Below, piece by piece: positions 4,618-60,396 of a DNA stretch of 64,000 nt. The stretch's first letter is position 1. Every line of letters begins with the position of its first letter. Location: positions 4,968-68,967 of IMG/VR virus record IMGVR_UViG_3300021963_000106. One strand, given 5' to 3'. Both the position numbers and the translations under genes were made by a program. A model generated the notes under the pieces. It was not told the DNA's origin, did no database searches, and saw only the letters and a list, made by a program, of their open reading frames with translations. This DNA is from a virus.

Positions 4618-5199
4618 TTACTGTTCCCCAGTCACTGGTGTCCAGTATTGAACTTGGAATTCAACAGTAAATTCCTCAATAGTATCTGAAGTATCATATG
4701 AAAGATCAATTGCAGAAACGTTTGTTGGGAAAACACTGTAGAACTTGTAAGTGGCTGCGGTGTTTTGTGTCAATCCGGTACCCTCTCCATTACCATTTCT
4801 AGTAACTGTTGAAGGTCCTCTCTTTAGTTGTTTTACGTATGCGTCAACCATGTAAGTTGCAGGATCTGTAGCACCACTTGCATCACCATACTGACCAATA
4901 AAGTTCATCCAATTTTCCATTACCTGTCTGATTTCAAAACTTTCATCATTAATGATAGTAACAGTCCAGGTATCGAATGTGCGATCTCCCGCTACTTTAA
5001 AGATTCTTCCTCTAAAAGGAACATCGATCGATGCAATGTTTGATGCTGGTAACTGCGCTGCCTTACAAAGAATAGAGAATGACTCTCCCAAAGAACCACC
5101 ACCAGGAATAGTTCCTGGGATGGTCACTTCGAACAGATTGGGTCTTGCGCCACCGCCAATGAGAGTGGATTTAAATTTTGAAATTGTTGACTCTGCCAT
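4618..5199 (-). CDS. gp19: Tail tube protein
   Basis: GGARPNLFEV, FRGR..KVAGDRTFDTWTVT, IEEFTVEFQ motifs; between sheath and portal. Confidence 0.96.
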   Translation of the reverse strand: MAESTISKFKSTLIGGGARPNLFEVTIPGTIPGGGSLGESFSILCKAAQLPASNIASIDVPFRGRIFKVAGDRTFDTWTVTIINDESFEIRQVMENWMNFIGQYGDASGATDPATYMVDAYVKQLKRGPSTVTRNGNGEGTGLTQNTAATYKFYSVFPTNVSAIDLSYDTSDTIEEFTVEFQVQYWTPVTGEQ

Positions 5200-34100: not shown

Positions 34101-37100
34101 ATGAATGTCCATACTCTAATCCATAGGAACTATTAATACTGGTATCAACAATTCCATCATCATCTGTTATTTGATTTGATTGAATACATCTTTCAACTAA
34201 ATTGACTGTCCATTGTTTTGGTTGGAAGTTTAAATTTGCTCCAGATCCTGGAGAAATTACTTCAATTTTAACACTGTCGGTTCCATATCCTACACCACCA
34301 TAAACAACTTTAACTTCCGTTAGTACACCATCTTGTACTACTGGTGTTAAAATAGCACCAACCCCCATTCCTTGGACTATAAGTTGCAAGTCGGGTGGAG
34401 CATTATAATTACTACCTCCATCAAGAACAACAACTTCTGTAATTTTTCCATCATTTATTACAGGAACTGCGGAAGCACCAGAACCAGAATTTAAAGTGTA
34501 TGAAGGTTGTCTATTGTAATTCAGAATTTCTTCTGATCCATAGTTTTTTCCACCATCAGAGACAAAAACAGATTTTATTGGCCCTCTGAAGATCGGTTGA
34601 AGAACAGCATCAAATTTTTGTCCTGTTCTAGTTGAAACTCCAATCTCACCAGATACTGTGACAACTATTGGTTGATGATTGAATATATGAGTTCCTACTC
34701 CAACGGAAGTCAATGAAACATACTGAGAAGTGTCAAAGTAGAAATATTTTGAAATTGATCCAACACCAATGTTTGATAACTTAAATGAGTTATCATCAAC
34801 TTTAGTCAAGTAGTATAACTCATTATTTGTTAGGCCACCAACTGGTGTACCCTCACTTTGATATTGAATTACTTCACCATCAATATATCCGTGATTTTCA
34901 ATTCTTATTAAACTATTAAAAGTATCAATTCCAACAGCTGTTGTAGTTGTTTTTCTATTCTTATACGCAATACCTCTATCAACTACACTAACACTTCCAA
35001 TTTTATTTTTTAAATTTACACATTTAAATTGATGTACACCGTTTCCATGCAAATTAATATCAATTGTATTAATTCCTACTATAGCATCATCATAATTTTT
35101 ATGTAATTTGATTGTATATTGGTCTTGAACAGATGCATAATAAGTCGAATTTGTGGAAAGACCACCAATTCCTTTTTGTCCAAATGTTTCATATACTATT
35201 TTTTCACCATCTCTAAATTTATGATAACTAGAAAATCCTACAGTATTATTTGTAAGATTGACTAATCCAGAACTAGAATCTGCATTTAAATCTACAGAAT
35301 ATTCAAATGTAAGTAAATTTGCTTTAGCTTTGGCTTCAAATCCGTTACCACCAATAATATTGATGATAGGTTCAGTCACATAATCAAATCCACCATCAAT
35401 AACATCTACTCTGTCTAAAATTCCATGTACTTCACAGAATCCTTTAGCACTAGATCCAGTAGAATCTTCAATTGATAGTGTTGGGGGATTAATCGCATCA
35501 TATCCATCTCCTTCTGCGATTACATCTATAGATTCTATAGGTCCATAATATACAGCGTCTTTTGACTTGTAATTTAAAATTTCAACACCATTTATCAAAA
35601 TGCCAACTGGACCAGGTTCAGTTGAATAAATTAGAGAGTCACTTACTGGGTTTGAGACTTTTCTTAAAAGTTTTTGTGGTTGTATTTTCTTTGAATAGAA
35701 ATTGTATAATTCAATTTTATTATTTAAAACTGTACCACTAAGATTAATAAACTTACCATTATGAATATTTGCTCTACTGTATGCAAGTTTAATGGTTGTA
35801 TTGTTTATTTTTTTAACAAAATATATTCCAGATTCAATATTTAAAGAATTTGTTTCACTTCCTGCAGAGTAAAATACTGCATCTCCGGTATAAAATCCAT
35901 GAGATCCTATATTTAATTCTTCTCCAGTAAAAGATCCAGAGAAAGTTATAGATCTATCCGTTACTGATAAATCTTGACCAAGATAATTTGGTAATGAGTT
36001 AGATGTTACAATTAAATCATTATTATTATCTACATAAACGTTTTGAACGTTTGAAGTATAAACGTTCAACTCTGGATAATTTTTAAATTTAACTTTCGAT
36101 ATTAACTTCTCTACCGTATATAAGATAGATGGATTTAGAATACGACCTGCATTAACTATAAATGTATTCTTGGAAATTATATTTGATACTGTTAAAGTTA
36201 AATCAATCTCATTAGAAACTAATTTAACATTATCGCCGATTAATATATTTGAATTATCTACGGTTGTAATGCTATAAGAATAATTTGAAATATCAAGTAA
36301 AGAAATATTTTTAACGTTGTATTTTACTGGAATATTGAAAAACCAGTTATTTTCTTTAAGATTTGTTGTTTCTTTTCCTAGTGTTTTAATTCTGATGATA
36401 GAATCTTCAGAATAATATCTATTTGTTTGTGGAATATTGAGTTGAGATAAAACTCCAGTTACTTTAACTTTTACTGGATTATTTGTTGTTAGTCCAACAT
36501 AACCATATGCGTATGAATCATCAGAAATCTCTTGGCCTGCCAATAAATCTTGAGATATTCCTGAACAATTAAAAAATTGTGTCAGTGACTTTGATTCATA
36601 GGTTATTGTATTGGATGTTCCATTTGGTAAATATGCAATTAAAGAACCACTAGTACCAAAACCAACTGTTGAATCTACATCTAAAACATTATTTCCAATA
36701 ATAGCATTTGAAGTTAATTTAGTTTTGGGATGTATTGAAAAATCACCAAAAATAGATCCAGAAACACTGATATCTTTATTATAATCATAATCTAAACTTA
36801 AAACATAATATTCTTTATCTCCTCTGACAAGTTTTTCAACTTTAGTTACTGATCCGTAAGCTTTTTTGATAAAATCCGTTTCATCCTGAAATAAAGTTCT
36901 ATTTTCAAGATCTAATGGGTTTCCTTCAATTGATTCTACAACAATATCTTTAGTTACGCGATATTGTGCGTCTGATGGTTTGAAGAGATAATCTCTTGGT
37001 TTGATTACCTCTACATTTTCACCATATAATGCTCCAAATAAAATCTTAAAGGAATTATCTGTACCCTTTGATGAATAAAAATCTTTTGTTTGTTTTAAGA

Positions 37101-44134: not shown

Positions 44135-44371
44135 TCAATCAATCGCTAATCTGTACCTTGCATAATCTTCTGCATCAGATCTTTTCTTGAATCTTGCTTC
44201 TTCACCTTCAAACCTGAGTGGCAAGTATCGGTATTTCTTTCCTTCCTTAGTCATAACGATTCGGGAGAATAGATGAAGAGAGTAACAACCTTCTTCTGTA
44301 TATTCACTCTCTTTCTTTACTATGAATGGCAGAACTTGTTGATCGTTGAATGACTGTTTAGAGAGTAACAT
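44135..44371 (-). CDS. Hypothetical protein
   Basis: 78-aa ORF. Confidence 0.65.
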   Translation of the reverse strand: MLLSKQSFNDQQVLPFIVKKESEYTEEGCYSLHLFSRIVMTKEGKKYRYLPLRFEGEEARFKKRSDAEDYARYRLAID

Positions 44372-44381
44372 TGTGAAAGAC

Positions 44382-44840
44382 TCAGTTAGGAACTTCTTGA
44401 ATTGTTTCGGTGATAGTGATAACTTCTTGTGTATCAGTTAGATAGTCTGTCTTGATAACATTCGGACCAATGATAACTTGACCAACGATGATTGATGCTA
44501 GGAGAGTTTCAATCATTTTGATTTCAGTTGTTAATCAGTTCGGCAGGACTTCCACAAGAGAGATAGAATTGCACCATCCTTTGTGCTTCATCTAATGTAG
44601 AGAATGATTGCGTTCTCCATTGTTGTCGATAAGGCGTAAAGTAACGGATGGTGAACATCATTTTGTAGGATAAAGACAGGAACTAACTTTACCAGGAGTT
44701 GCTATAACTTGTCCTCCTTTCTCTATACATTGTGCCTCTACTTGTGTGTTTCTAACGTTAATAATACCAAGAAGAAGTACAGCAAAAATAATACCTCCAA
44801 GAATGATAATTACGTTCATTTGGAGTTGCTCTCTGTTCAT
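44382..44840 (-). CDS. Three tandem tiny ORFs (44382-44516, 44524-44658, 44658-44840), two with hydrophobic N-termini
   Basis: Manual translation; tightly packed. Confidence 0.55.
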
Positions 44841-48156: not shown

Positions 48157-48825
48157 TCATTCAATTCTTACTCTTTGTGATGTATCAATTCCTCTTTTTC
48201 TTTGATACTTTGTAAGATTGCCAGCATTTGTTATAAATCCCGTCTCCAAACATTTCCATTTCTGATAACCAGATTTTTCTCTTATTTTTTGCCTAATTTC
48301 TTCACTATGTTTTCTATTTTTTCCTGCTTCACTTAATTTTTTCCTTTGCTCTTCACTTACAATTTTTCCCCTATTTCCATCTCCTATTTTTCTCCGTGTT
48401 TCCTCACTTGGAGATTGACCTTTATTCCAAGGTGTTTTACCTTTTGCTGCTTCACTTAATTTTTTTCTATGTTCTTCACTAAATCCTTTGCCTTTTTGAG
48501 AATTGCTAATTTTTCTTCTCCACTCTTCACTACACTTTCCACCTTTATTCCAAGCAATAGCACCAGAAGTTCCATCACCACCATTAGTTAAGTTCCTCAA
48601 GATGCCAGTCCCTAAATCTTTTCTACCAAACACAGCAATCATATACTTTTCGTGCTTAAATGCTTCTTCCTCTGTTAGATTTTGTTTAAGAAAGATTATT
48701 CTATCTTTTGGCGGAACATTCAGTTTTCTATTAACTTTAGAATATGCTCTCCTATCTTTACCCTTCCCAATGTAGTAGGGAGTTTTATCCTCACGCAAAT
48801 AAGCGTAGGTATAGTAATTATTCAT
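48157..48825 (-). CDS. Free-standing GIY-YIG-type homing endonuclease with NUMOD3 repeats (A)
   Basis: YYTYAY...YYIGKG, R, E (AFKHE), N (LRNLTNGGDG); repeated S-EE-x-RxK-I/L-S motifs. Confidence 0.85.
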   Translation of the reverse strand: MNNYYTYAYLREDKTPYYIGKGKDRRAYSKVNRKLNVPPKDRIIFLKQNLTEEEAFKHEKYMIAVFGRKDLGTGILRNLTNGGDGTSGAIAWNKGGKCSEEWRRKISNSQKGKGFSEEHRKKLSEAAKGKTPWNKGQSPSEETRRKIGDGNRGKIVSEEQRKKLSEAGKNRKHSEEIRQKIREKSGYQKWKCLETGFITNAGNLTKYQRKRGIDTSQRVRIE

Positions 48826-48924
48826 ACTGCTTTGTTTGTGGTTATACTTATTTATACAAGAAAAGAGGCATTTCTGCCTCTAATCTCTTCGCTTGAATAA
48901 CCACAAACAAGCAACTTTATTTAT
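48826..48924 (-). ncRNA. Structured leader/candidate antisense sRNA unit of endonuclease A
   Basis: 14-nt perfect inverted repeat 48832-48845/48897-48910, two hairpins, two late-promoter motifs. Confidence 0.6.
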
Positions 48925-49352
48925 CGTCGGTAGAGCCAACCGCCGCTCCAATCCGCATTTTCCAGAGCCCACTCCCTCTCTTTAATGATTAGGAGATTGC
49001 ACCTTTCGCCCTTTGCAGGACTACGCCACGATGCTGACTTGAAAACGCCTCCGTTTTGCTTATCTACAAAGAAAGCAACACTACGCGATCCACCACCATT
49101 CACCATAATAACTTTGTGATACTTTTTACCAGTTTCTACAGTATAATCAATGTCGCACTTACCAGACTTGAGTTCATCAATCTTCCGCTGATGATACTCC
49201 TGAGTGTCAGCATCATTCACGAACTTTTGATGACCGCGAATAGAATACTGCACATAATTCTGCTTGAGTGCTTCAATCAGCAGAAGAGTGTTCTTATACA
49301 CATTCTCTGCAATAATTTGTTTTGCTTGTGCTTGCATGGTAGTGTTGCTCAT
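48921..49352 (-). CDS. Phage hypothetical protein (FKSASW..PAKG motif)
   Basis: 143-aa ORF starting in repeat copy 8. Confidence 0.8.
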   Translation of the reverse strand: MSNTTMQAQAKQIIAENVYKNTLLLIEALKQNYVQYSIRGHQKFVNDADTQEYHQRKIDELKSGKCDIDYTVETGKKYHKVIMVNGGGSRSVAFFVDKQNGGVFKSASWRSPAKGERCNLLIIKEREWALENADWSGGWLYRR

Positions 49353-49385
49353 ACTATTGGGACAATCTCAGGGGCCCAGTTACAT

Positions 49386-50288
49386 TCACCAGTTTTTTGC
49401 AAGAGTGAAGTTTAGACGGCTGAATTGCATACGATCAACAATCTTGTATGATCCAAACTTGTTGTGCATTACGAATCCTTCATGATCAGACTCGTTACCA
49501 TCAATCTCACACAGAATGTCATCGTCAGTATCAATGAAGAAGAACAAATCCATCTTGATTGATGCAACAAGTTTCCAAAGTCGCATCAGGTTGATGTCAA
49601 CATCATAATTTTCTGCAATTTCATGTTCATCCACCATCTTACCCTCACGGATGTAAGAATTGATGATTTTTTTGAGTTCTGCAGATTGTTTTACATTCAC
49701 GAACTCACAAAGAGTGCTCATTTGCTTAGCAAACTTACACACGTCTTCAATGTCCTCACGATAAGGACAAATAGACACCTTAGGTTGCACAAATAGACAG
49801 TCTTTTGTACTTGCAAACTTACTGGTAATAGGATGAGCTACCATCTCAGGCAGACGATCACCAGTGTAATATGTGTGAGGAGCAATGATAATCTCCTGAC
49901 GTACAATCTCAGAGAAACGATAGGTAATCGTGTTGGGTTTGAATGTATCAAGACCCTTACCGAAACCAATCCAATCTCCCTGATACACGTTGTTAGTGCG
50001 AGGCAGGAAATCCAGACAATAAATGAGAATCTGTGCTACGCGAGGTTTACCACCAAAGTGATCAAACACATCATCTTCATTGTAGCAAAGACGAATCTTT
50101 TGTTTATTGAACGCTGCCTTTGTGCAGACAAAAAACTTACCATTCTCAGGATTTGTACCCCACACAATAGCAGGAGCTCCATCCATCTTGACACTAATCT
50201 TACTGTTGGATTCATACATCCAATCCAGTACAGATAGATCACCTGTAAGGATGAGATCTTCGGGATGTTCTAGATGTTTGTTTTGCAT
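49386..50288 (-). CDS. Ligase/nucleotidyltransferase-fold protein (DUF6267-like)
   Basis: KHLEHPED start; KMDG (motif I KxDG), QGD, HEGFV, YKIV motifs. Confidence 0.65.
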   Translation of the reverse strand: MQNKHLEHPEDLILTGDLSVLDWMYESNSKISVKMDGAPAIVWGTNPENGKFFVCTKAAFNKQKIRLCYNEDDVFDHFGGKPRVAQILIYCLDFLPRTNNVYQGDWIGFGKGLDTFKPNTITYRFSEIVRQEIIIAPHTYYTGDRLPEMVAHPITSKFASTKDCLFVQPKVSICPYREDIEDVCKFAKQMSTLCEFVNVKQSAELKKIINSYIREGKMVDEHEIAENYDVDINLMRLWKLVASIKMDLFFFIDTDDDILCEIDGNESDHEGFVMHNKFGSYKIVDRMQFSRLNFTLAKNW

Positions 50289-50294
50289 GGCTCT

Positions 50295-50329
50295 ACAATG
50301 ACATAAAAAAGGGGACAATGCAAGTCCCC
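50295..50329 (-). promoter_or_regulatory. Overlapping terminator and promoter
   Basis: GGGGAC/GTCCCC stem + T6; TTGCAT-17-CATTGT. Confidence 0.6.
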
Positions 50330-50342
50330 TTGTGACACTTAA

Positions 50343-50630
50343 TCAAGCGGCCTTGCGCTTGCTGGTTTTGGTAACTTTTACCTCTTGAATTGGTAGAGCA
50401 TTTGCATTGACCAATTCATACATGGTAGCAGTAGAACGATTCACCAAGAAAAGAGTTTGATTAATAAACTTGCGAACTTTATTCACACCATCGTTCTCAT
50501 TAAATGCACGAATCAGAAACTGACTGACTCCAACAAAAATTGCAGCGATGGTAGCAATGTTCTTCACAAGAGTATCAACGAACTTCCAGTAGAATGTCAT
50601 AGTTTGTGTTAGAAACTTCTGTGAGAACAC
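50343..50630 (-). CDS. Hypothetical membrane-associated protein
   Basis: Hydrophobic segment IATIAAIFVGVSQFLI; follows copy 9. Confidence 0.65.
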   Translation of the reverse strand: MFSQKFLTQTMTFYWKFVDTLVKNIATIAAIFVGVSQFLIRAFNENDGVNKVRKFINQTLFLVNRSTATMYELVNANALPIQEVKVTKTSKRKAA

Positions 50631-50842
50631 GTCCTCACACTAGAGAGACAATCTCAGGGGCCCAGTTCAATCAACTGGGAGTTTTGCTACACTCTTACCT
50701 TTCTTATGATCTGTGATATACTTTCGTGCAGATGATTCAGTCCTGCAAAGTTTATCTAACTGTTGACCATTATGAATGATAAGATACTGGTTCCCGTAAG
50801 GAATTGCAGCATAGGTATCCTTAAACATTGTAAATCCTTCTT

Positions 50843-51388
50843 TCATACTAGAAACCTCTTCTCATAATCTAACAGTTCTTCGGGAACATCCAATACATTG
50901 TTGTTGATTGGACGTGCATATTTCCACTCTTTCTTACCACTTTCTCTCTCATACAGTTTGATGCCCAAGTGGTTATACTTCATGTTGGTTGCTACAAGAA
51001 CCTTGTAACCATCGTCTTTGTTTTGTGTCAAGAATGAGAGTGATTCGTTCTCCTTCGATGTAACAATGATCGTCCTACATGAGTACCAGAAAACTGACTT
51101 GAACTTCTCATAATCGTTCAGGTAAGTATCCTGATTATCCAGAATCATTCGACCAACAAATTGTGGCGAAAGACAGTGATCTTGAGTTGTCTTACCTCTG
51201 TTCATCTTGTTGACATAGGCATTCTCACTGATCAGACCAGTTGGGTTAGGATTGCCAGAGTCAAATACACCAAGATAGAAGTCACGGGCAAGAGCAATGT
51301 TCCACTCTGGAGATTCATTCCATTTGTGAGCATTAGCCCTCATGTTGTTGAATGTTTTCTCGCAGAAGATTTGCCAGTTGCGTTTCAT
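50843..51388 (-). CDS. Hypothetical protein, possible His-Me/HNH-like nuclease
   Basis: DHCLSP...IVTSKEN spacing reminiscent of beta-beta-alpha-Me nucleases. Confidence 0.55.
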   Translation of the reverse strand: MKRNWQIFCEKTFNNMRANAHKWNESPEWNIALARDFYLGVFDSGNPNPTGLISENAYVNKMNRGKTTQDHCLSPQFVGRMILDNQDTYLNDYEKFKSVFWYSCRTIIVTSKENESLSFLTQNKDDGYKVLVATNMKYNHLGIKLYERESGKKEWKYARPINNNVLDVPEELLDYEKRFLV

Positions 51389-51509
51389 TTTAAGAAAAAT
51401 CGGTGATTTTGTTGCGGTGGATGGGTTCTAGGTCGGTTGCAGTGAAATTGCAGAAAAATCAGGGTTTGACCCCTGATGGCCACTTGAGTCTTGGGTGAGA
51501 CTCACCGCC

Positions 51510-52010
51510 TCACATATAAGGTTGACCCTTCTCTGCCCGTTTCCTTCTCCATTCTCTCATATAAAGAGCGTGAGATGATACACTCTCTTCTGGTTCATAT
51601 TTTCCCTTGTTTGGAGGTATCCTACCTTTGAGACTTTCCTTCATTTTTACTATACTTTCTTGAGTGTGTTTTCTTCCGTAGAAATGATTTTTACTTCCCA
51701 TTCTACTTTGAGACATTCTACTCCTTGTTGTTTCTGTGAGAGTTGCTCCAGAAGTTCCATCGCCACCATTAGTTCTATTCCAAAGAATACCAGTTCCCAA
51801 ATCTTTTCTACCTAATACACTGATTAGATAGATTTCATGATTAAATGCGTCCTCTTCATTATCGAAATGTTTAAGAATTAAAACTCTATCTACTGGAGGA
51901 ACAAAAACATATCCTCTGTGGTCTCTATATGCTCTGTTACCTTTCCCCTTACCAATGTAGTAAGGTGTTCCATCTTCACGCAGATATGCGTAAGTATAGT
52001 ATTCTTTCAT
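51510..52010 (-). CDS. Free-standing GIY-YIG-type homing endonuclease with NUMOD3 (B), paralog of A
   Basis: YYTYAYLREDGTPYYIGKGK, GRKDLGTGIL.N.TNGGDGTSGA shared with A; HFYGRKHTQE. Confidence 0.85.
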   Translation of the reverse strand: MKEYYTYAYLREDGTPYYIGKGKGNRAYRDHRGYVFVPPVDRVLILKHFDNEEDAFNHEIYLISVLGRKDLGTGILWNRTNGGDGTSGATLTETTRSRMSQSRMGSKNHFYGRKHTQESIVKMKESLKGRIPPNKGKYEPEESVSSHALYMREWRRKRAEKGQPYM

Positions 52011-52113
52011 TGTAAGTCTGGGGATGACTGTATCTATTTATTCTATCATAAAAGTGGGACTTACGCAACCTTTGTCTCCCCAGACTTACAGATTGCTGCC
52101 CACATTCTATTTA
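52011..52113 (-). ncRNA. Structured leader/candidate antisense sRNA unit of endonuclease B
   Basis: 14-nt perfect inverted repeat 52011-52024/52077-52090; upstream arm sits in loop of a larger stem; two TAAATA motifs. Confidence 0.6.
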
Positions 52114-53295
52114 CCGACGTACTACACTATCAACCATCTCACCTTTCTCAAAGACAGCATCAACAACTCGTTGAAGTGCTCGTTCTGTAGATACTCCAAC
52201 TTTAGAATATACAGGCACCACACACAACCCCCAGACTTTCTCTTTGCCACCAAGGCGAAGAACACGACCGATAGTTTGAGTCATTTCGATCACATCCATG
52301 TTGCGAAGAAAGACTACTGCCTCTAGTTCGCTGACGTTGATTCCCTCACTCAAGATAGAACGATGGAGACAAACAAACTTCTTATTAGGGTCACGACCCC
52401 AAGAATTGAGAGTGTCGAAAAACACTTCACGATTTACCTTCTTGCCATCAATAATAGCCCCAGTCTTGGAGGTAATGTAGAGGTAGGAATAACCATATTG
52501 ATGTAGTTTTTCAGCACAGTCAGTGTGAGACATCAGGTTGATAAGTTGTTTCGCAGACTTAACACAAACCAGGATTTTCTTACAATCAATATCCCCCAGA
52601 GTTTCCATCAGATTGCTACTGTCACACTCAGCAGTTACCTGCTTTGGTGCAAGCACATCGAACTTCTTTGCTACAATCTTAGGAGCGATAATGTATCCAC
52701 CATCAACAAGTTCGGGAGCAGAAACGCGGCAGATGATGTCACCATAGACATCACGATCGTTCATTCCAGGTTTAGAAGGAGTGAGAGAAGTCTTCCTGGT
52801 TGCAGTGAAGAAGTAACAACGACGTGCGTTAGCAGCAAAGTGTTCAGTTGCAGGGAAAAAGTGACGTTGAACAGAATTATGTGCCTCATCAAAGTAGATC
52901 GTATCCACATCAATTCCTGCAACTTGCAGACGCGACAGAGAGTTGTAGGTAGTGAAGATCAGTTGGTGACGATTAGAAGCGGCACACATACCAGCGTGAA
53001 CAAGAATGTCACGAGGTTTGGTAGTGCTAACGTGATGAGTTTCTCCACTGTGAACGTGCAGAACTTCAGCGTTAGTGATAAACTCCAGAAACTCAGCAGA
53101 GAGTTGTTCCGCAAGAAGAATACGCGGTGCAACAACAACAATCGTCTGGGGAGTTTCAGACTGCAACTCGCGCAGACAATCATAGATCATCTTCAGAGTC
53201 TTGCCACCACCAGTAGGAACAATGATCTGACCTTTATCATGTTGTTGCATAGCAGCAACACCACGTTCTTGATGCGGACGGAGTTGGATTTGCAT
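52111..53295 (-). CDS. SF2 DExH helicase
   Basis: LRPHQ, PTGGGKT, DEAH, TAT, LSEGIN, QTIGRVLR motifs. Confidence 0.92.
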   Translation of the reverse strand: MQIQLRPHQERGVAAMQQHDKGQIIVPTGGGKTLKMIYDCLRELQSETPQTIVVVAPRILLAEQLSAEFLEFITNAEVLHVHSGETHHVSTTKPRDILVHAGMCAASNRHQLIFTTYNSLSRLQVAGIDVDTIYFDEAHNSVQRHFFPATEHFAANARRCYFFTATRKTSLTPSKPGMNDRDVYGDIICRVSAPELVDGGYIIAPKIVAKKFDVLAPKQVTAECDSSNLMETLGDIDCKKILVCVKSAKQLINLMSHTDCAEKLHQYGYSYLYITSKTGAIIDGKKVNREVFFDTLNSWGRDPNKKFVCLHRSILSEGINVSELEAVVFLRNMDVIEMTQTIGRVLRLGGKEKVWGLCVVPVYSKVGVSTERALQRVVDAVFEKGEMVDSVVRR

Positions 53296-53359
53296 TGGAA
53301 TCGGTATCTATTACAAGGACATTCTAAAGGGCCCAGTTTCATCAACTGGACCCCAACAA

Positions 53360-54460
53360 TCAAACTAGAGAGAGTTCGATTTCAGATTCGGGATGGAAGT
53401 CTAGGAGAACTTGATCCACTGGGTTTCCATCAATCAGACAAGAATGAATGAAGTGAAGTGTTTCATCGTTCATAGTTTCAATGAAGGGACCAAACATATC
53501 AAATGTTACCACATTTTCATTGAACCTTGCCCGAGACCATTCGTTGAAGCATAGTGCGAGTCGGATAGTTGCAGTTTCCATACCTGCACCATGTTGACAC
53601 TTTGCAGTCCACCAATCCTTATGTCGTTTCAGATACTGTTCACTCTTCAGATACTTCTTAAAGTTGACAGATTCATCACCCAACATGTCACAGACATTTG
53701 CAATCGCACCATCAAGTTGAGTTCGACCAGTGTTAAGTTGTTTCAGGAGAGGAATGTATTTGATGAACTTATCCACACCAAGATATACAGAACTCTTCAT
53801 ATTAGTGAGGAGATTAGTCATGTTTCCGTGACCGTCTTTGTAGACAAGTTCTGCAGAATCTACACTCACACCATAATCATTTACATGGATTCCTGCTTCA
53901 GCACAAGCGTTATCAAGTTCCTGTTGTTCTTTGGTCATACTTCCTGAGAGTTTTGCTACTCGCATCTTGGAAGTTGTTTTGACTTTTGCATTGAGTTCAT
54001 TCTTTGCATAGAAGAAGTCACGTTCTGCAGCAATCATCTCATCTTCAGTACAATTCATATCATGTTTTCCTTGACGTTGAATAGCAATCTCTTCAACACC
54101 ACAGATATAAGCCATGATTGCACGGTGCATACCATCGGGACTTGAATCTCCATACAATTCAGATACAAATGTATCAATAGTTCCTGCAGTTTTGTGAGAG
54201 AAACCACCAAACCTCTTCAGGTTATCTTGAATGTTTCCATGTTCAATCGCATCAACACGTTGAGTCAAAGTATTGATGAAGAGATCCTTAACGTTGATCG
54301 TTCGTTTTTCATCACGCAGAGGAATCTCATCCATTGCACCATCACTTTTCACACCTTTAGTTTTTTGTGCCCATGCAACAAGTTGCGGACAATACTTGTC
54401 AACAATTTGGGGAATGGTGAGAAGATACTGAGGAACTTGAGTGGTCATAATGTAGTTCAA
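53360..54460 (-). CDS. ParB-N/DGQHR-like domain protein
   Basis: N-terminal TQR...PDGMHR motif. Confidence 0.55.
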   Translation of the reverse strand: MNYIMTTQVPQYLLTIPQIVDKYCPQLVAWAQKTKGVKSDGAMDEIPLRDEKRTINVKDLFINTLTQRVDAIEHGNIQDNLKRFGGFSHKTAGTIDTFVSELYGDSSPDGMHRAIMAYICGVEEIAIQRQGKHDMNCTEDEMIAAERDFFYAKNELNAKVKTTSKMRVAKLSGSMTKEQQELDNACAEAGIHVNDYGVSVDSAELVYKDGHGNMTNLLTNMKSSVYLGVDKFIKYIPLLKQLNTGRTQLDGAIANVCDMLGDESVNFKKYLKSEQYLKRHKDWWTAKCQHGAGMETATIRLALCFNEWSRARFNENVVTFDMFGPFIETMNDETLHFIHSCLIDGNPVDQVLLDFHPESEIELSLV

Positions 54461-54502
54461 TTAAGAATTAAAGTGTTTCGGGTGGTTTCATATCTAAAAG
54501 AC

Positions 54503-54548
54503 ATTATACCACCCTTCCTGACGTTTGTGGAGGGGTCTTGTGACAGTT
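54503..54548 (-). promoter_or_regulatory. Promoter (TCCACA-17-TATAAT) preceded by AACTGTCACA box
   Basis: Perfect -10 with extended TG. Confidence 0.6.
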
Positions 54549-54550
54549 AA

Positions 54551-54706
54551 TCAACCACCGAACATTTCATCAAAAAGCCAATCACCAGAACGCTCTTTTT
54601 CTTCCCAGACTTTGTTAGCGTTCTCAATGATCATTGCCTGTTCGATCTTCACATCAATGGCAGATTTGGTCATGAACCAGTTGCCGTTGCGATCTTGCCA
54701 GAGCAT
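54551..54706 (-). CDS. Hypothetical protein (MLWQDRNGNW...DWLFDEMFGG)
   Basis: Start after repeat copy 11. Confidence 0.65.
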   Translation of the reverse strand: MLWQDRNGNWFMTKSAIDVKIEQAMIIENANKVWEEKERSGDWLFDEMFGG

Positions 54707-54760
54707 TGTGTTGAGTGTCGTTGTTATACTACTGGGACAATCCCAGGGGCCCAATAACTA

Positions 54761-55360
54761 TCAGGGTTGATAGTGTGATGCTGGTTTATCAACTCCCTTC
54801 TGAATGTCACGATGCAGTCTCTTACCAGCTCTCACAAGTTTCTTCTTCTCATCTTTAGTATATTTACCCTTGATCATATGATCTTCAGGTTTTCTTGAAC
54901 TAGAGAATCTTGAATCTTTTGCTTGTGATGTTGGTTTAGGTGTTGCCTTCTTTCTTAGAAGTTCAGTTGCTTTTGATGCTAACTCCTTACCCTTTGGTTT
55001 TTCTGTTGTTGCAGCAGCACCTTTCTTTTTAGCAGCAATTCTTGCCTGTGCAGCCTTTCTTCTTTCTTCTTTTGCTGCAGCTAATTGTGCCTCTCTAGCC
55101 GATCCACGTTCTTGTTTTGGTGCTTCAATCGTTGATTCACGTTTCTTACCAATGTCTTTGCGGGGTTTCTGAACTACAGGCGCAGTCTTTCCACCACCAA
55201 CTCTCTTTGTTCTGCGAATCTCGGGAGTTGTCTTTCTGCGAAGCCTTCCAGTTCTTCCACCCTCTCCAGTCTTAATGACTTGAGCACCAGAGCGAAACTC
55301 TGCATCATAGGTATCACCAGTTGCTTCGCAAAGAGACATAAACTCCGTGAATGTACGCAT
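54761..55360 (-). CDS. Highly basic protein, candidate internal head protein (MRTFTEF)
   Basis: Lys/Arg-rich; TAAATA upstream. Confidence 0.7.
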   Translation of the reverse strand: MRTFTEFMSLCEATGDTYDAEFRSGAQVIKTGEGGRTGRLRRKTTPEIRRTKRVGGGKTAPVVQKPRKDIGKKRESTIEAPKQERGSAREAQLAAAKEERRKAAQARIAAKKKGAAATTEKPKGKELASKATELLRKKATPKPTSQAKDSRFSSSRKPEDHMIKGKYTKDEKKKLVRAGKRLHRDIQKGVDKPASHYQP

Positions 55361-55389
55361 TTGACTATCTAAAATACTCTTTTTAGTAT

Positions 55390-55593
55390 TTAGATGTCTT
55401 CATCCTTAGGTCGCAGTCCACCTTTACTCACAAGGCCGTTATCATAGAAATACTTTACACGTTCACGACGAGCAACCATCAAGAGATCATATTCTTCTTG
55501 TTGTTGTTTAGTGAACTTGAAATCTTGACGACGCCAAGCATCTTTCAGTTCTTTGATGTGAGGCAGAACGTTCACAGTGTCAGTCATAATCAA
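55390..55593 (-). CDS. Hypothetical protein
   Basis: 67-aa ORF. Confidence 0.7.
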   Translation of the reverse strand: MIMTDTVNVLPHIKELKDAWRRQDFKFTKQQQEEYDLLMVARRERVKYFYDNGLVSKGGLRPKDEDI

Positions 55594-55775
55594 TAATCGT
55601 AGTTGGAGTTGAGATATTCGTTAATGTTGAAACTGTTAGATTCTTCAATCAGTTCCGTTAGATCTTTTTCAATGAAATCAAATCCTGGAGTTTCTTCAAT
55701 TTGAATGTCATCAAAGCAGTCCATAGTTTGTTTCGTGCTTACATTATAGGGACAATCTCAAGGGCCCAGTTTGGA

Positions 55776-55967
55776 TCAACGACTCAAGATTGCTTTCATT
55801 CTTCTTTCTTTTGCTACTTGTTGTGATCTTGCTTCTGCACCAATCTCTTGATGAACGTGTTTTCTATGTGCAACTCCACCTCTTGCCTGAGCTTGCGCTT
55901 TCATTACATTAAATGGTGTAGGATTCATGTGTGGAGTTTGTTCCATGAATTGTTTGAACGTTTTCAT
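55776..55967 (-). CDS. Candidate internal head protein (MKTFKQFMEQ)
   Basis: Capsid-targeting-like N-terminus; TAAATA upstream. Confidence 0.65.
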   Translation of the reverse strand: MKTFKQFMEQTPHMNPTPFNVMKAQAQARGGVAHRKHVHQEIGAEARSQQVAKERRMKAILSR

Positions 55968-55995
55968 CTAACCAACACTTTTTGAGTATTTAGTT

Positions 55996-57165
55996 TTATT
56001 CAAACTCGAAAGACTTGTTTGATGTTTTCATTAGTGGAGTTCGATATTCTTCATCTGTAGAAGTTTGCACAAAAACTTCTATTTTAGTCTCATCATTCCA
56101 GTGACGAATCACACCAGCAACAATAAAGGCATTAGTAATCAAATAAGTCGCAAAAATAAAAGTTCGGATAAGTGCTACCTTATCCGATTCACGATCACAT
56201 TTACTTGCTTTTTCTCCCAATGCTTTAGCCCACCATCGCCAAGCAGTCTTGTTCTTCTTCATACTTTGATTGTCTTGACTTAACATACTTCAATTCTTTC
56301 CAATCTTCTTTGTAACAAACCACTAGCAATCTTTCATTTGCATGAATGGGACAAGCGTTATAGTTTTCTGTATCTTTGGGACGAACAACATATTCAATCG
56401 TTATGTATTCGTCATCCCTAAAATAAACCCAACCTTCAACATCTTTTGTCCATTCAACATAATCATTGACTTGTGGTTTGTATGTCATACAAAGAACGCA
56501 TCTAATGGGGACTGTTTAATAGGCATCGCGGTGTAATTCCGCGTATCCTTGATATTTACACAAGCACCGATGGTTTTACTATTGATGGGGGCGAAGTATT
56601 CTCTGGTCTTGGATTTATAGAATCCCCAGATTGTCCTTGTGGGAGCACCGTTATTGTAATCAAACTTGCGATTGCAATACAACCATATAGCAACAACTCC
56701 ACGCTTGAATTCTTCAAACTCATAATAATAACCTTTTGGTGCTTTGTGAGGAAACTCAGCAATCATAGAACTTATCACGCGACATATACTCAATTTGCTT
56801 CTGCAGTTGTGAGATTTCGTGTTCTTGTTCTGCAATTTTATTTTGCAGTTGTTCAATACGTTCTTGATACTGTTTCTTCAAATCAGACACCATTTGATTG
56901 GTGTGAGTAACGTGGTTAGTCATCAGGTGGTAAAAGATTCTACAACTTCGGATTCTACATTTTCTGAAAGAGCAAATGTTACAGCATTAAGGATGTTTTC
57001 TCTCAAGTCACTGTAGTGTTTTTCATAGAAATTGCCATTGTCTTCAGCGGAGATAAGATCAAAACACTCATCATCATCCTTTGCGACTACATTCCAAACT
57101 CCACCATACTCAGAAATAGGAAAGGGAACGTAATGTTGAACAATGTAAAGAAACTTTTGTGCCAT
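55996..57165 (-). CDS. Operon of small hypothetical ORFs (55996-~56262, 56225-56488, 56485-~56766, 56923-57165)
   Basis: Overlapping ORFs downstream of the promoter at 57189-57217. Confidence 0.7.
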
Positions 57166-57188
57166 TTGTTTGTGTAGATTACCTCTTA

Positions 57189-57217
57189 ATTTTAATTGTT
57201 ATCGTACTCTTTGTCAA
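57189..57217 (-). promoter_or_regulatory. Sigma70-type promoter
   Basis: TTGACA-17-TAAAAT. Confidence 0.75.
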
Positions 57218-57801
57218 TCAAATCATCCCCATCAGATGCAACTGAAAGAAATGCAAATCCCATCGTTGCAAGAATACCCAATGCAAATCCAGCAATAAAC
57301 TCCATTAGTAAAAATTCGATCTAGACAAGTATTTTTTATAAAGATAAAGGTTAAATGCAGTTCCTCCAAAGAGGACTGCAAATGCAGTTCCAATGATAGC
57401 AATCATCAATAAAACTCCGCAAGATAATAGTCAACAGGTACTTCAAGTTTTGCTGCCTCGCGTTCAACTTCTTTCCAGAACTCTTCTGCTACTTTATTCA
57501 TTTCTGCTTGTTTAATAAGATCACGGAGTCGTTTTGAAATCATTTAGAGTTCTCCTTAAGTTGATATTCTTCGCGTGGATACATTACCTTGAGGTAATAT
57601 ACCATAATGGATGATACAAATGCAACCAGAGTAGTATAGATTGTTATAGCAAATCCAATACTCATTTCATTTGTTGAATTGCTTGATGACGATAGTATGC
57701 TTTATACATTGCATCATCACGCTGAATTAGAAAGACATTCCAACCAAGAATGACTGCAAAACCAATCAATCCAGAGAAAACATACTTGCGGTTTGTGTTA
57801 T

Positions 57802-58218
57802 TCATACGGCAAGAGCAGCAGAGGGGATTTCAACAACTTCAGGAAGTTTTTGTTCATAACAGTTCATATCATAACATATCCATTCACCATTGCGGAACAC
57901 ATAAGCATACTCTTCATCTGAGTTGTTCTTTTTCAGATACTCACAGAGGTCAGAATCAAGACGAGGAGGGCAATCTTCACCACGTTGGGAATAGTATTCG
58001 GGTCCATAAACACCCTTCACACCACTATCATCCCAACGAGAATCAGTCCAACAGGAACTCATATCACCACCATCAATTAGTTCTTCAACAAGAGAACGTG
58101 AATTGTAGTGAGTCTTCAGGATGCGACCCAACCATTCGGGATAACCATCCCAGTGGTGATACACAGAGAGAATGGAACCATCCTTAAGTTCAAGACCAAT
58201 GCGAGAGCGGGTTGACAT
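57802..58218 (-). CDS. Phage hypothetical protein (MSTRSRIG...YHHWDGYP)
   Basis: 138-aa ORF following repeat copy 13. Confidence 0.8.
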   Translation of the reverse strand: MSTRSRIGLELKDGSILSVYHHWDGYPEWLGRILKTHYNSRSLVEELIDGGDMSSCWTDSRWDDSGVKGVYGPEYYSQRGEDCPPRLDSDLCEYLKKNNSDEEYAYVFRNGEWICYDMNCYEQKLPEVVEIPSAALAV

Positions 58219-58522
58219 TTGAAAATTGTCCTTACACTATAGGGACAATCTCAGGGGCCCAATAACTATCAACCTCCCTTTTCCCTCAAACTCCTTACAA
58301 GATATTCAGTAAACTCTTCCATTTTTTCAGGCACAACTGCTTGAGGACGTTGGTTAATTGCATTTTTAAGTGCCGTCATTTCTTTCCATTCATCATCGGT
58401 CAGTTTTTCTTGTTTTCCAGATGAAAGGGTCATAATTTTTCTCCCGAATACTCTCTTATGTTATCATATCCTAATAAATTATCTAGACATTTAACAATCT
58501 CTTCGGGATTGATTAACACTTC

Positions 58523-59707
58523 TTAATCATCAAAGAAAGAACCAAAAGATCCACGACTTCCTGGTTTTCGTTCTTCCAACATATCCATCAACTCTTCAAT
58601 TTTCTTACAGTTCTCCATATCAAGGAGAAGTTGGGAAAGTTGCTTTACGACCAAAGGTTTTTCAGAAGTCGATGCAACACGAATGGCAGCACGAAGATGA
58701 GATTCTGCTTCTAAAATATGTTCTAAAGTTTGTTTACTTAAGGCCATTAAGTCTATCCTCACATTTAGTATAAAAAGTCCCATTAACATAACAGGACTTG
58801 CCAGGTTCATAATATTTTACCACAGAAGGTTTTGGTTGGTCAAGAGTGCAATATCCACGATTGGACAATGCACTTTCAACACACAACATTAAAGCAGCAG
58901 GAGCTAGAAGTTTAATTGTGTACATTACACTTTTCTCATTTCAAAACTACCATCACCACGATCAATCCACTGCACAATATCCCCTTCTTTAAGATTTGCC
59001 GCTTCTAAAAGATCATCGGGAAAAGTAACTAGATATTCATCTTCTCCTGGATATTTTTCTACAGGAAGTTGCCACTTTACAACTTTATCTTTGTAGTGTT
59101 TTAGATATTCTTGATGACTCGATTCCCAAAAATCATTCCAAGCACCTTGACACTCTGGTGATGTGTCATCTTTATCACAACTCAAGATTTCATTTAGATG
59201 ATTCTGATATTTGTTATTGTCAACACCACTATTCAAAAGTCCAAGAAGTTCATATGCTTCAGATGCTTTTTGTTTATATGTGTAATAATTATCCTTTACT
59301 ACACCAACAATAACATCATAGATTTCTTGCGGTGTTGCTTCACCTGCAGACATTGCATCATGCAACCAATTCTCAAGATTTTCAAGAGAATACTTTTTAT
59401 AGTCCATAATCAATCTCTTGGTTTGGGTTTAGAGCAATCGTGGCAATAGTATGAGAAACCATCGCGGAAGTATTTTACCACCTGATAGTGGTCTTTGTCA
59501 AGTGGTTTTTCCACTCCACATTTATCACAAATCCTTGTCTTTTTTGATAGACTTTCGGATTCGTTTGAGTTCTTTGAGTTCCATTTTAATATTTTTGTAA
59601 GCAGCGTCAGCATCTAGTTTGCCTCCCATTTCCATTGCAATAATTACATCGACTCTTGTGCCAAAGTGCGCTAGTGCTCGTTCAAAATCGCTATCCAATT
59701 CATACAC
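58523..59707 (-). CDS. Run of hypothetical ORFs (58523-~58747, 58734-58925, 58925-59413 with AbrB-like C-terminus, 59410-~59540 CxxC, 59525-59707)
   Basis: Coupled ORFs; LVTFPDDLLEAANLKEGDIVQW resembles an AbrB/MazE fold. Confidence 0.65.
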
Positions 59708-59709
59708 GA

Positions 59710-60291
59710 TTATTTCCTCCTATTATATGGTTTTAATTCCAATCTTCCAGGTTTCCATTCATCACCAGGACATTTTACACTTCTTTTACTTGTTTGTCCA
59801 TTATTCCACCACTTTGTATTTTTATGTGATGGTGGTAGGTGTCCAATTTCTTTTAATGCTTTACTTATGTTTTTCTTATTTTCTTCACTCAGTGGTTTAT
59901 TTTTATGTGTATCACTTAATAATTTTCTTTGTTCAAGAGAGCGTTTTTTACCTAAATTAGATTTTCTAATTTTTTCTTTAGTCTCTTCACTATGAGTCCA
60001 TCCCAATTTACCATCTCCACCTAATGTACTATTATATCCATACTCAAAAGTGTTGAACTCTTTTATGTAAGAAATTTCTTTTTGAGATAGAGATTCAATC
60101 TCACATTCTTCAATTATACCATAAATGAAATTTTCCCATCCATACTTTCTTACTGCATTGTAAAATTTTCTCTTACAACCCTTGTTGGACATATAGCGAT
60201 GATATTCTTTTCTTCTTCTTTCGTATTTTGTTTGCCCAATGTACTTCTTACCTGTAGGAATACAATGGTAGCAATAAATTACTCCTTTCAT
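59710..60291 (-). CDS. Free-standing GIY-YIG (Seg-like) homing endonuclease with NUMOD3 repeats (C)
   Basis: GVIYCY...KKYIGQT, GYNSTLGGDG, HSEETKEKIR repeats. Confidence 0.88.
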   Translation of the reverse strand: MKGVIYCYHCIPTGKKYIGQTKYERRRKEYHRYMSNKGCKRKFYNAVRKYGWENFIYGIIEECEIESLSQKEISYIKEFNTFEYGYNSTLGGDGKLGWTHSEETKEKIRKSNLGKKRSLEQRKLLSDTHKNKPLSEENKKNISKALKEIGHLPPSHKNTKWWNNGQTSKRSVKCPGDEWKPGRLELKPYNRRK

Positions 60292-60396
60292 TTCTGCTCT
60301 TAAGTTGGTGGTTAAGACTATTTATACAGGAAAAGCACCCAAAGGTGCTTTATCCTAACCTGAAAAGAACCACCAACTCAGGCACTTATTATTTAT
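60292..60396 (-). ncRNA. Structured leader/candidate antisense sRNA unit of endonuclease C
   Basis: 11-nt perfect inverted repeat 60303-60313/60368-60378, two hairpins, two late-promoter motifs. Confidence 0.6.

Follow-up and report, generated by a model that had tools for sequence, protein, structure and literature searches.

Mobile homing endonuclease cassettes in a T4-like cyanophage relative carry a conserved control leader and a candidate small RNA

The stretch of viral DNA analysed here, referred to as the window, comprises 64,000 nucleotides (nt), corresponding to positions 4,968 to 68,967 of IMG/VR virus record IMGVR_UViG_3300021963_000106, and contains three homing endonuclease genes, designated A, B and C, each preceded by a structured leader that is the subject of this report. 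The window represents most of the 69-kb record, which has an estimated completeness of 32% and a GC content of 35%, and nearly all of its genes lie on the minus strand. The sole DNA match in the phage collection is to the helicase of Synechococcus phage S-CREM1, with 76% identity, and the protein relatives of the nucleases derive mostly from Synechococcus phages of the Kyanoviridae; because of these two similarities, the record can be assigned by sequence to the relatives of T4-like cyanomyoviruses.

All 20 copies of ATAAATA in the window are on the gene strand and none on the opposite one, and 15 of them sit 12–60 nt 5' of a start codon. All three copies of CTAAATA are likewise on the gene strand, 19–26 nt 5' of starts, and GTAAATA shows no strand bias, with seven copies on the plus strand and six on the minus strand. 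The distribution of ATAAATA fits the published late-promoter motif of cyanomyoviruses, NATAAATA (PMC2984593). The late box of T4 spans positions −13 to −6 (PMC2988020), and from this geometry the predicted transcription start (+1) was placed at the sixth base after each box.

Nuclease A (222 amino acids, aa; 48157–48825), nuclease B (166 aa; 51510–52010) and nuclease C (193 aa; 59710–60291) are all encoded on the minus strand, and each contains NUMOD3 and matches PHROG 314, "homing endonuclease". A preliminary description of this DNA had labelled all three as GIY-YIG enzymes, a label that fits C better than the other two. In nuclease C, the Pfam GIY-YIG domain scores 22.0 bits, close to the cut-off of 22.6, and PHROG 5123, "homing endonuclease with GIY-YIG motif", is matched at 4e-17, with a weak similarity to the catalytic domain of I-TevI (E 0.08). 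For A and B, the Pfam search returned NUMOD3 only and no GIY-YIG domain, and a sequence search of the PDB with nuclease A alone returned chance matches only; a profile of the A/B N-terminal domain reaches a GIY-YIG structure at E 0.0065, which lends the label weak support. Homologues in GenBank entries MW015081, MN695335 and PV340852 carry the label "translation initiation factor 2", probably an annotation error to which the NUMOD3 repeats, rich in lysine and arginine, gave rise.

Ahead of each nuclease, on the minus strand, all of the elements previously described were found at their assigned positions: an upstream TAAATA, a hairpin exposing an antisense arm, a terminator-like stem with a U-rich tract, a second box, a complement of the exposed arm, and the ATG. 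In unit A these elements form the first part of a mobile insert of 764 nt (48160–48923, minus strand, borders defined to about 1 nt), which consists of an upstream box (P1), a 5'-terminal hairpin (H1), a terminator (T), a start-proximal box (P2), the leader and the nuclease open reading frame (ORF). The P1 of A (48918–48924) is an ATAAATA late-promoter-like box, whose TAA (48923–48921) is the stop codon of the DUF7717 gene and whose predicted +1 is the G at 48912. H1 of A (48890–48913) has the stem (U)GCUUG/CAAGC(G) and a 12-nt loop, identified by folding and by covariation of the stem, and contains the antisense 5' arm (48913–48897). The terminator of A (48857–48881; stem 48881–48864), AGAGGCA-GAAA-UGCCUCU followed by UUUCUUG, was recognised by an independent terminator scan, by folding and by covariation. 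P2 of A, TATAAATA (48849–48856), stands 23 nt before the ATG with a predicted +1 at the A in 48843. The 3' arm (48828–48845) occupies nearly the entire P2 leader, and a perfect 14-nt complement at 48845–48832 lies inside this longer arm, ahead of the ATG at 48825. The arms of A pair in the minimum-free-energy (MFE) fold, with a duplex energy of −22.6 kcal/mol and a cofolding free-energy difference (ddG) of −12.7.

Unit C, also on the minus strand, has the same order. Its P1, (A)ATAAATA (60390–60396), lies inside the end of a 76-aa gene and has its predicted +1 at 60384. Folding places H1 of C at 60358–60383, with the stem GCCUGA/UCAGGU, a loop of 12–14 nt and the 5' arm at 60383–60368, and the terminator at 60327–60357, with the core AAAGCACC-UUUG-GGUGCUUU (60351–60332), an outer extension and a U-rich tail; a simple terminator scan did not report the terminator of C. 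P2 of C is again TATAAATA (60319–60326), 27 nt before the ATG at 60291 and with a predicted +1 at the A in 60313, from which the 3' arm forms the P2 leader (60295–60313). The fold joins the arms of C through an 11-nt Watson–Crick complement extended by G–U pairs and bulges (duplex −23.1 kcal/mol; ddG −14.3).

In unit B, on the same strand, the upstream TAAATA, GGTAAATA (52108–52113), lies at the helicase stop, to which it contributes the TAA, and was not taken as a promoter. Sequence and fold define a bipartite hairpin at 52054–52103, composed of an outer stem GUGGG/CCCAC, an internal loop CA/GUAAGU, an inner stem GCAAUC/GGUUGC and a 20-nt loop that contains the 5' arm (52090–52077). UUUUAU (52053–52048) follows the hairpin directly, P2 of B is AATAAATA (52035–52042), 24 nt before the ATG at 52010, and the 3' arm, UCCCCAGACUUACA (52011–52024), is a perfect 14-nt complement that abuts the AUG. 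The earlier statement that TAAATA overlaps the preceding stop is correct, but the overlap is not the same in all units: the TAA of the box is the stop in A and B, whereas in C the stop consists of the final TA of the P1 box and the A that follows it, not of the first TAA.

When about 120 nt of each leader were folded as one RNA, the MFE structure of all three units contained a long-range stem that links the sequence immediately 3' of the upstream stop with the sequence leading up to the ATG; the terminator-like hairpin and P2 lie inside this stem. The fold z-scores for A, B and C are −5.7, −3.1 and −3.7, and equally stable structures arose in 0, 2 and 0 of 200 shuffled sequences, respectively.

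Relatives of the nucleases were collected from IMG/VR to compare their leaders. The search with nuclease A identified 229 relatives, from which 80 loci were kept; 77 provided 170 nt of upstream sequence, three were too short, and 45 unique leaders resulted. The full layout of A and C (the A/C type) is present in 33 of these leaders and the layout of B in one, which represents four loci, while the remaining 11 belong to neither type: five have no proximal box, and six are boxed but have no second box, terminator or arms. One two-box leader (L022) was dropped because the architecture was absent. The search with nuclease B identified 51 loci, 50 with enough upstream sequence, which gave 41 unique leaders, 38 of the B type and three of the A/C type. 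A covariance model built from a 15-unit alignment of A/C leaders, searched against 57 sources, gave 49 matches, of which 48 are distinct. The A/C order runs from P1 ([ACGT]ATAAATA or CTAAATA) through 5 nt, H1, 0–5 nt, T, P2, about 5 nt and the 3' arm to a few nt and the ATG; P2 is TATAAATA in 45 of the 48 distinct units, and the arms are highly diverse, with at least 15 different cores. The preliminary description had treated the three units as alike, which does not hold, as A and C form one type and B belongs to a separate, also widespread leader type. Its proposal that the architecture is kept while the sequence diverges, with complementarity maintained pairwise, is borne out by dozens of related loci with compensatory changes. 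Rfam gave no match at the gathering score across the window, and at the three sites only sub-threshold chance matches or none.

Comparison of the A/C leaders demonstrated that their arms are matched within units. In 35 units, the 5' arm just inside the left end of the cassette pairs with the 17–24-nt leader before the ATG, with a duplex energy of −21.8 kcal/mol (−18.7 to −25.9) for the own partner versus −10.0 (standard deviation 4.05) for the partners of other units. The own partner was the best or tied in 24 of the 35 units, and in the other 11 it was outdone by just 1–4 of 34 partners. The helix spans about −5 to −20 and ends 3–6 nt short of the AUG. In a plain MAFFT alignment of 15 units, evaluated against a hand-written structure, both sides had changed in 8 of 15 long-stem pairs and in 5 of 7 terminator pairs, and 94.5% of cells were paired, compared with 79% after shuffling and 38–56% when the partners were slid; none of the five measures was equalled in any of 500 shuffles. 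A model-fitted alignment of 48 units, which is biased towards structure by construction, showed changes on both sides in 22 of 22 pairs and 97.6% paired cells versus 65.7% after shuffling. RNAalifold predicted no pairs on a plain MAFFT alignment of 35 units, because the variable arms are misaligned there. The terminator, with a GC-rich stem, a tetraloop and a U tract, is present in 35 of 35 A/C units and covaries. The covariation in the 15-unit and 48-unit alignments thus identifies the long-range stem and the terminator as conserved RNA structures, and the covariance analysis suggested at the outset supports these two elements as well as the loop-closing stem. By analogy with the T4-type nucleases, it is highly probable that the conserved pairing acts in cis, keeping read-through transcripts silent and transcripts from P2 open.

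The upstream box was examined separately. In the 35-unit alignment, whose mean column identity is 57%, no column is invariant apart from those of the two TAAATA hexamers and a single T, and the P1 TAAATA is present in all 48 distinct matches of the covariance model. Detection without reference to P1, which asked for P2 and for arms pairing at −16 kcal/mol or better in addition to a stable hairpin and a T-rich tail, yielded 49 distinct units, all 49 with TAAATA 45–95 nt upstream of P2; a stricter earlier filter of the same kind had given only five units and was superseded. Chance resemblance among three AT-rich intergenic regions would draw on the fact that a single short hairpin or TAAATA is common at 35% GC, the latter with a chance of about 2% per 50-nt window (799 sites in 1.07 Mb, both strands). 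The fold z-scores, the covariation and the 49/49 co-occurrence of P1 exclude such a resemblance of the three leaders, whose probability is negligible.

Nuclease-free alleles at the insertion sites indicate where P1 comes from. At site A, the DUF7717 orthologues provided 51 unique stop contexts, and the nuclease and P1 are found only in the window's own allele (1 of 51); nearly all nuclease-free alleles end in TGA, and TAAATA is absent from the stop in every one of them. Where L089, one of these alleles, reads ...cgtTGAttgtaactgggccc, the window reads ...cgaTAAATAAAG...ATTGAA TGAttgtaactgggccc; insert A therefore begins with TAAATA, from the T at 48923, and runs to 48160, and the stop of the nuclease A ORF is the resident TGA. 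At site C, 57 contexts were available, and TAAATA stands at the stop in none of the 54 nuclease-free contexts and in two of the three that bear a nuclease. Presence or absence of the nuclease is thus polymorphic at fixed sites, with 1 of 51 contexts occupied at A and 3 of 57 at C, and in leaders of the A/C type P1 belongs, as these alleles show, to the cassette and not to the host genome. About 65 nt separate P1 from the upstream stop in S-SRM01, and the stop codon ahead of P1 in S-B68 is TGA; P1 is therefore more than a stop codon.

Two observations were made beside these at site C. The third nuclease-bearing context, L273, an IMG/VR locus fetched through the 76-aa gene upstream of nuclease C, has a C-like nuclease at the same insertion site with a single TATAAATA and without P1, H1 and terminator, and offers a natural "minus module" comparison. 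At the other end, the 3' end of nuclease C (59700–59745, minus strand) gives the next host gene a strong AGGAGG ribosome-binding site and a GTG start, whereas in nuclease-free alleles the start of that gene is an ATG overlapping the upstream stop; cassette C therefore rebuilds the initiation region of the downstream gene.

The surroundings of P1 resemble those of P2. Of 48 units, 47 have a purine at the predicted +1 of P1, and 47 have one at that of P2. The predicted P1 start coincides with the 5'-most paired base of H1 in 44 of 48 units, and the predicted P2 start falls 1–2 nt past the beginning of the 3' arm in 34 of 48. Both boxes share an extended context (box, A-T-A/G-A-T, G at +1, C), and their 5-nt spacers are 82% and 85% A+T; an A+T-rich spacer has been described for T4 late promoters (PMC2988020). 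An own late-promoter motif, as originally proposed for all three units, is upheld for A and C, where the box is invariant, cassette-borne, placed 5 nt before the hairpin and followed by a terminator. It is not upheld for B, where it occurs in 8 of 38 leaders and GTAAATA is unbiased. For the A/C type, sequence evidence of this kind makes activity of P1 as a late promoter moderately probable.

If control were of the classical kind and in cis only, TAAATA would be unused and kept as a border, a stop, an A/U-rich processing site or a relic of mobility, and H1 and T would finish or stabilise the upstream messenger. Such a mechanism is established for T4-type nucleases (PMC2988022), hairpins containing TATAAATA have already been noted before marine metagenomic nucleases (PMC2677866), leaders of the B type do without P1, and in A and B the host gene takes its stop from the TAA of the box. 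It leaves unexplained, however, the invariance of six bases in 48–49 units amid variable neighbours, the constant distance of 5 nt to the base of H1 together with the P2-like initiation context, and the retention of the box where it provides no stop, as in S-SRM01 and S-B68; in addition, TAAATAA supplies a stop in only two of the three frames. Purely classical control is, on balance, rather unlikely to be the full explanation.

A transcript starting at P1 and ending at T would be 49–65 nt long, and the predicted RNA folds as H1 followed by T in 35 of 35 units. Among 31 distinct H1 hairpins, the third pair is U–A in 17 and C–G in 14, and the fifth is G–C in seven, A–U in eight, U–A in eight and unpaired in eight. 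H1 cells are paired in 88.7% of cases versus 75.3% in shuffled sets, and cells changed on both sides number 36 versus 13.9, neither value being reached in 1000 shuffles; these counts come from an end-anchored script written for this purpose and applied to the predicted stem, which leans towards structure, as MAFFT gave no single register for H1. The display of the antisense arm in a hairpin loop, one of the first features to be noticed, is thus conserved and covarying. The predicted P1 RNA, cofolded with 60 nt from the 5' end of the predicted P2 messenger, gave a ddG of −13.1 kcal/mol for cognate pairs (−8.9 to −16.6, n=49) compared with −2.9 for random non-cognate pairs, and the terminator stays intact in the cognate cofolds. 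Since P1 is invariant, cassette-borne, placed 5 nt before a hairpin and followed by a terminator, a co-mobile RNA of about 50–60 nt is a well-founded hypothesis for A and C. An upstream ORF with attenuation was considered as another function of this segment and rejected: the NTG found at the P1 start reads ATG in just 28 of 48 units, and its frame stays open for anything from 2 to more than 30 codons, with an unconserved end.

Two other uses of the transcript have to be weighed at this point. P1 could be active and the full-length RNAs could be what matters, with the loop of H1, or of the large B hairpin, speeding the pairing of the arms through a pseudoknot-like intermediate as a kinetic switch in cis; silent read-through messengers from P1 would then carry late transcription to downstream host genes. 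The loop display in both leader types, including the promoterless B type, agrees with such a switch, as does the mutual exclusion of H1 and the long stem, both of which covary. The strong, covarying T4-style terminators after H1 nevertheless argue that most P1 transcripts stop there, and downstream genes are already reached by P2 transcripts, so the switch is considered improbable. It is less probable still that the RNA composed of H1 and T acts on something else, for instance a protein or an RNA of the host or of a competing phage, and that the complementarity to the leader serves cis control only. This idea has no direct support and follows only from the compact two-hairpin form of the RNA, while the existence of at least 15 arm cores means that there is no common external target, and the module always occurs with P2 and a nuclease (27/27 and 46/46).

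The mechanism proposed for these elements is that each nuclease gene resides in a mobile cassette that carries its own expression control. Transcripts from upstream would mostly stop at T, and those that read through would have their initiation region locked by a duplex of about −22 kcal/mol. Because P2 lies between the arms, late transcripts would begin with the opening bases of the 3' arm and, being free of the 5' arm, be translatable, in analogy to T4 I-TevI and segB and to Aeh1 mobE. In A and C only, transcription from P1 would start at the base of H1 and end at T, producing the two-hairpin RNA of 49–65 nt, whose H1 loop and 5' stem strand complement the whole P2 leader. Such an RNA would most likely bind the P2 messenger in trans, by nucleation at the loop and opening of H1, and dampen late translation of the nuclease, and P1 transcripts reading through T would be silenced in cis. 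Unit B has no conserved promoter of its own and would therefore act in cis only, on read-through transcripts. Taken as a whole, cassette-borne expression control with a small RNA from P1 in A and C and cis action only in B is the best explanation, with about an even chance of being correct. Repression of the nuclease in trans by the P1 RNA is a more tentative component, somewhat less likely than not, and slightly more doubtful is the specific form in which a late-promoter-driven, same-strand "anti-leader" RNA, about 55 nt in length, pairs its 5' end with the 5' end of the messenger and restrains the nuclease in trans.

Several observations weigh against this interpretation. A 5-bp stem at the start of the RNA occurs in 36% of shuffled tails, so the case for H1 rests on covariation, and the switch at the third pair of H1 tracks two leader subfamilies and may be a single event. 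Units co-resident in one genome are no more orthogonal than random pairs, with a cross-energy of −9.2 within genomes (n=40) versus −10.0 between genomes, a comparison that is not decisive for action in trans. P1 matches the perfect T4 consensus TATAAATA in just 6 of 48 units, with C at −12 in 14 of 48, and the in-vivo activity of variant late promoters is unsettled even in T4 (PMC2988020). The TAA of the box doubles as the stop of the invaded gene in A and B, which may partly explain its retention. Leaders of the B type lack TAAATA in 30 of 38 cases yet keep the loop-displayed arm, and loop display and silencing therefore need no promoter. Finally, the leaders contain at most a weak AAGAG or AGCAG and no strong Shine-Dalgarno sequence, and the AUG lies outside the helix, so that occlusion of the ribosome is inferred.

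The B type was characterised from its 38 unique leaders, which share the bipartite hairpin with the outer stem GUGGG/CCCAC and a covarying inner stem. The arm lies in and around the apical loop, P2 and the 3' arm are followed directly by the AUG, and the own duplex reaches −26.6 kcal/mol versus −17.9 for other partners. The arms and the inner stem covary, and the internal loop, with GUAAGU on its 3' side, is nearly invariant (52054–52103 of the window, minus strand; L165–L215), which suggests a binding site or a tertiary contact. TAAATA 5' of the hairpin occurs in 8 of 38 leaders, nearly all of them alleles with the helicase gene of the window. The box upstream of B was rejected as a promoter, given its position at the helicase stop, the G at −13 and −12, the absence of strand bias and its rarity among the 38 leaders. 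Many B-type leaders have a weak U tract or none, and in several the hairpin abuts P2; a terminator-like stem with a U tract, which had been ascribed to all three units, is accordingly a covarying feature of the A/C type (35/35) and not of B, whose U tract is unconserved in relatives. Unit B is thus an instance of cis sequestration with an additional conserved hairpin, and its likeness to A and C is superficial.

Some further features of unit B can be recorded here. B nucleases that are 95% identical (L165 compared with L166–L168, L172 and L184) have arms with several compensated differences, and the arm of B in the window recurs beside nucleases that are just 55–66% identical; recombination seems to act independently on leaders and ORFs. 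In the 120-nt spacer after nuclease B lies a terminator-like hairpin with a T tract (51458–51477, minus strand), and cassette B therefore seems to end in its own terminator. Right before the B hairpin, at the end of the helicase gene, lies a sigma-70-like TTGATA-18 nt-TAGAAT (10/12; 52104–52133, minus strand); sigma-70-like matches near B occur at chance frequency (53 found versus 50.9 expected).

The module was also followed beyond the direct relatives of the three nucleases. A scan of 716 kb for the pair of boxes found 46 distinct units, each followed by a homologue of A, B or C (46/46), and a strict search for P1, H1 and T in 1.07 Mb gave 27 candidates, with P2 following in 27 of 27; none of these 27 was an orphan without a nuclease, although both samples are enriched for nuclease loci. 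In the complete genome of S-SRM01, the covariance model has six matches. Three of the six units precede nucleases of the GIY-YIG/NUMOD3 type (two relatives of A and one PHROG 314 protein), and the other three precede an endonuclease VII/HNH-like gene (PHROG 1035, 7e-10), a PHROG 655 homing endonuclease (4e-27) and an unassigned 227-aa protein with a short match to nuclease A. The leader before endonuclease VII/HNH-like, PHROG 655, GIY-YIG and 227-aa genes in S-SRM01 (MW015081) can be seen at loci L216, L219, L220 and L222. As one leader stands before differing nuclease genes in this genome, the control module has therefore been shuffled between nuclease families. One unit each was found in S-B68, B23 and MA01, that of S-B68, a phage grown on Synechococcus WH7803, occupying 44326–44429 on the minus strand of MK016664. 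The model had no match in RN05-S, ACG-2014f and Sf-CH5 and gave a match in S-N03.

These leaders can be compared with the control regions of known phage nucleases. In T4 I-TevI, I-TevII, I-TevIII and segB and in Aeh1 mobE, a late promoter lies within a hairpin that sequesters the ribosome-binding site, and terminators add an extra layer (PMC2988022; PMC3014915). The leaders described here are similar in having a P2 of the TATAAATA type 23, 24 or 27 nt before the nuclease ATG, and an inverted repeat that pairs the initiation region with a strand 5' of P2, so that only longer transcripts fold. They differ in that the two strands are about 50–60 nt apart and enclose a whole terminator, in that the upstream strand is displayed in the loop of a covarying hairpin, in the second late box of A and C, and in the lack of a strong Shine-Dalgarno sequence. 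Dassa et al. (2009) reported hairpins in 15 of 16 endonuclease 5' regions at "fractured gene" loci in marine metagenomes (PMC2677866). Ten of these hairpins include TATAAATA, and two conserved motifs are complementary in the stem, which was read as a classical translational hairpin (PMC2677866). The leaders of that study probably belong to the same or a related family; its text does not contain the word "terminator" and seems to discuss no upstream second promoter or small RNA. The literature search found no report of a second late promoter, a loop-displaying hairpin or a small RNA for these leaders, and the supplements of PMC2677866 may show the same leaders. The long-range stem is therefore of an already known kind, and what is new is the layer formed by P1, H1 and T, the exact borders of the cassettes and the sharing of the module across nuclease families.

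Several small RNAs resemble the predicted one in part. The c4 antisense RNA of phages P1 and P7 is a small structured RNA made upstream on the same strand, which uses loop complementarity to block a downstream ribosome-binding region; it arises by processing of a longer RNA, and its target in a temperate phage is an operon for an antirepressor. The RNA predicted here differs from c4 in that it would have its own late promoter and terminator and would move with a nuclease cassette. Type I antitoxin RNAs are encoded on the opposite strand or in a divergent repeat, their toxins are small membrane peptides, and the systems act in post-segregational killing. A small RNA co-inherited with a potentially harmful gene and pairing with its messenger to limit translation, as predicted here, is similar to these antitoxins, and the likeness drawn in the preliminary description is apt as far as the manner of working goes; it does not extend further, since the RNA would lie on the same strand as its target and the protein is a nuclease of 166–222 aa. 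DapZ and MicL are small RNAs formed from the 3' end of messengers by an internal promoter and a shared terminator, and they act on unlinked host targets, mostly with Hfq. StxS is a short RNA produced by early termination after a phage late promoter (PMC7547250). The predicted RNA has in common with these three a promoter at or in the end of the upstream gene and an end at a terminator, and with StxS the use of a phage late promoter, but its only evident target is the gene immediately downstream. In the cyanophage S-PM2, the antisense RNA CfrI, of about 225 nt, runs on the opposite strand across a nuclease gene and psbA (PMC2984593; PMC5931967). CfrI is similar in being a non-coding RNA tied to a homing endonuclease gene in a T4-like cyanophage, and is unrelated in sequence and layout.

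How selfish nuclease genes stay low enough in expression to be tolerated is a standing question. In T4, such restraint involves the choice of promoters, sequestering hairpins, terminators, processing by RNase E and autorepression (PMC2988022). According to a review from 2010, no small trans-acting regulatory RNA of T4 had been functionally characterised, and related genomes were hoped to yield candidates (PMC3014915). The unit described here is a sharply defined candidate for such a trans-acting small RNA, with 48 distinct units, and is present in the cultured phages S-SRM01, S-B68, B23 and MA01. If the proposal is true, T4-type phages would gain their first family of small regulatory RNAs that act in trans, and the RNA would be a riboregulator borne by a mobile element, portable between GIY-YIG and HNH/EndoVII-like families and diversified into many mutually orthogonal arm pairs. 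Irrespective of the small RNA, the control region is part of the mobile element, with exact borders, one module serves different nuclease families, and at least 15 orthogonal leader/anti-leader pairs are available as possible riboregulator parts.

Elsewhere in the window, a single ORF of about 12.5 kb (about 4160 aa) occupies 25165–37659 on the minus strand, and the tandem ATAAATAAATA late-promoter-like motif that precedes it belongs to the next gene downstream.

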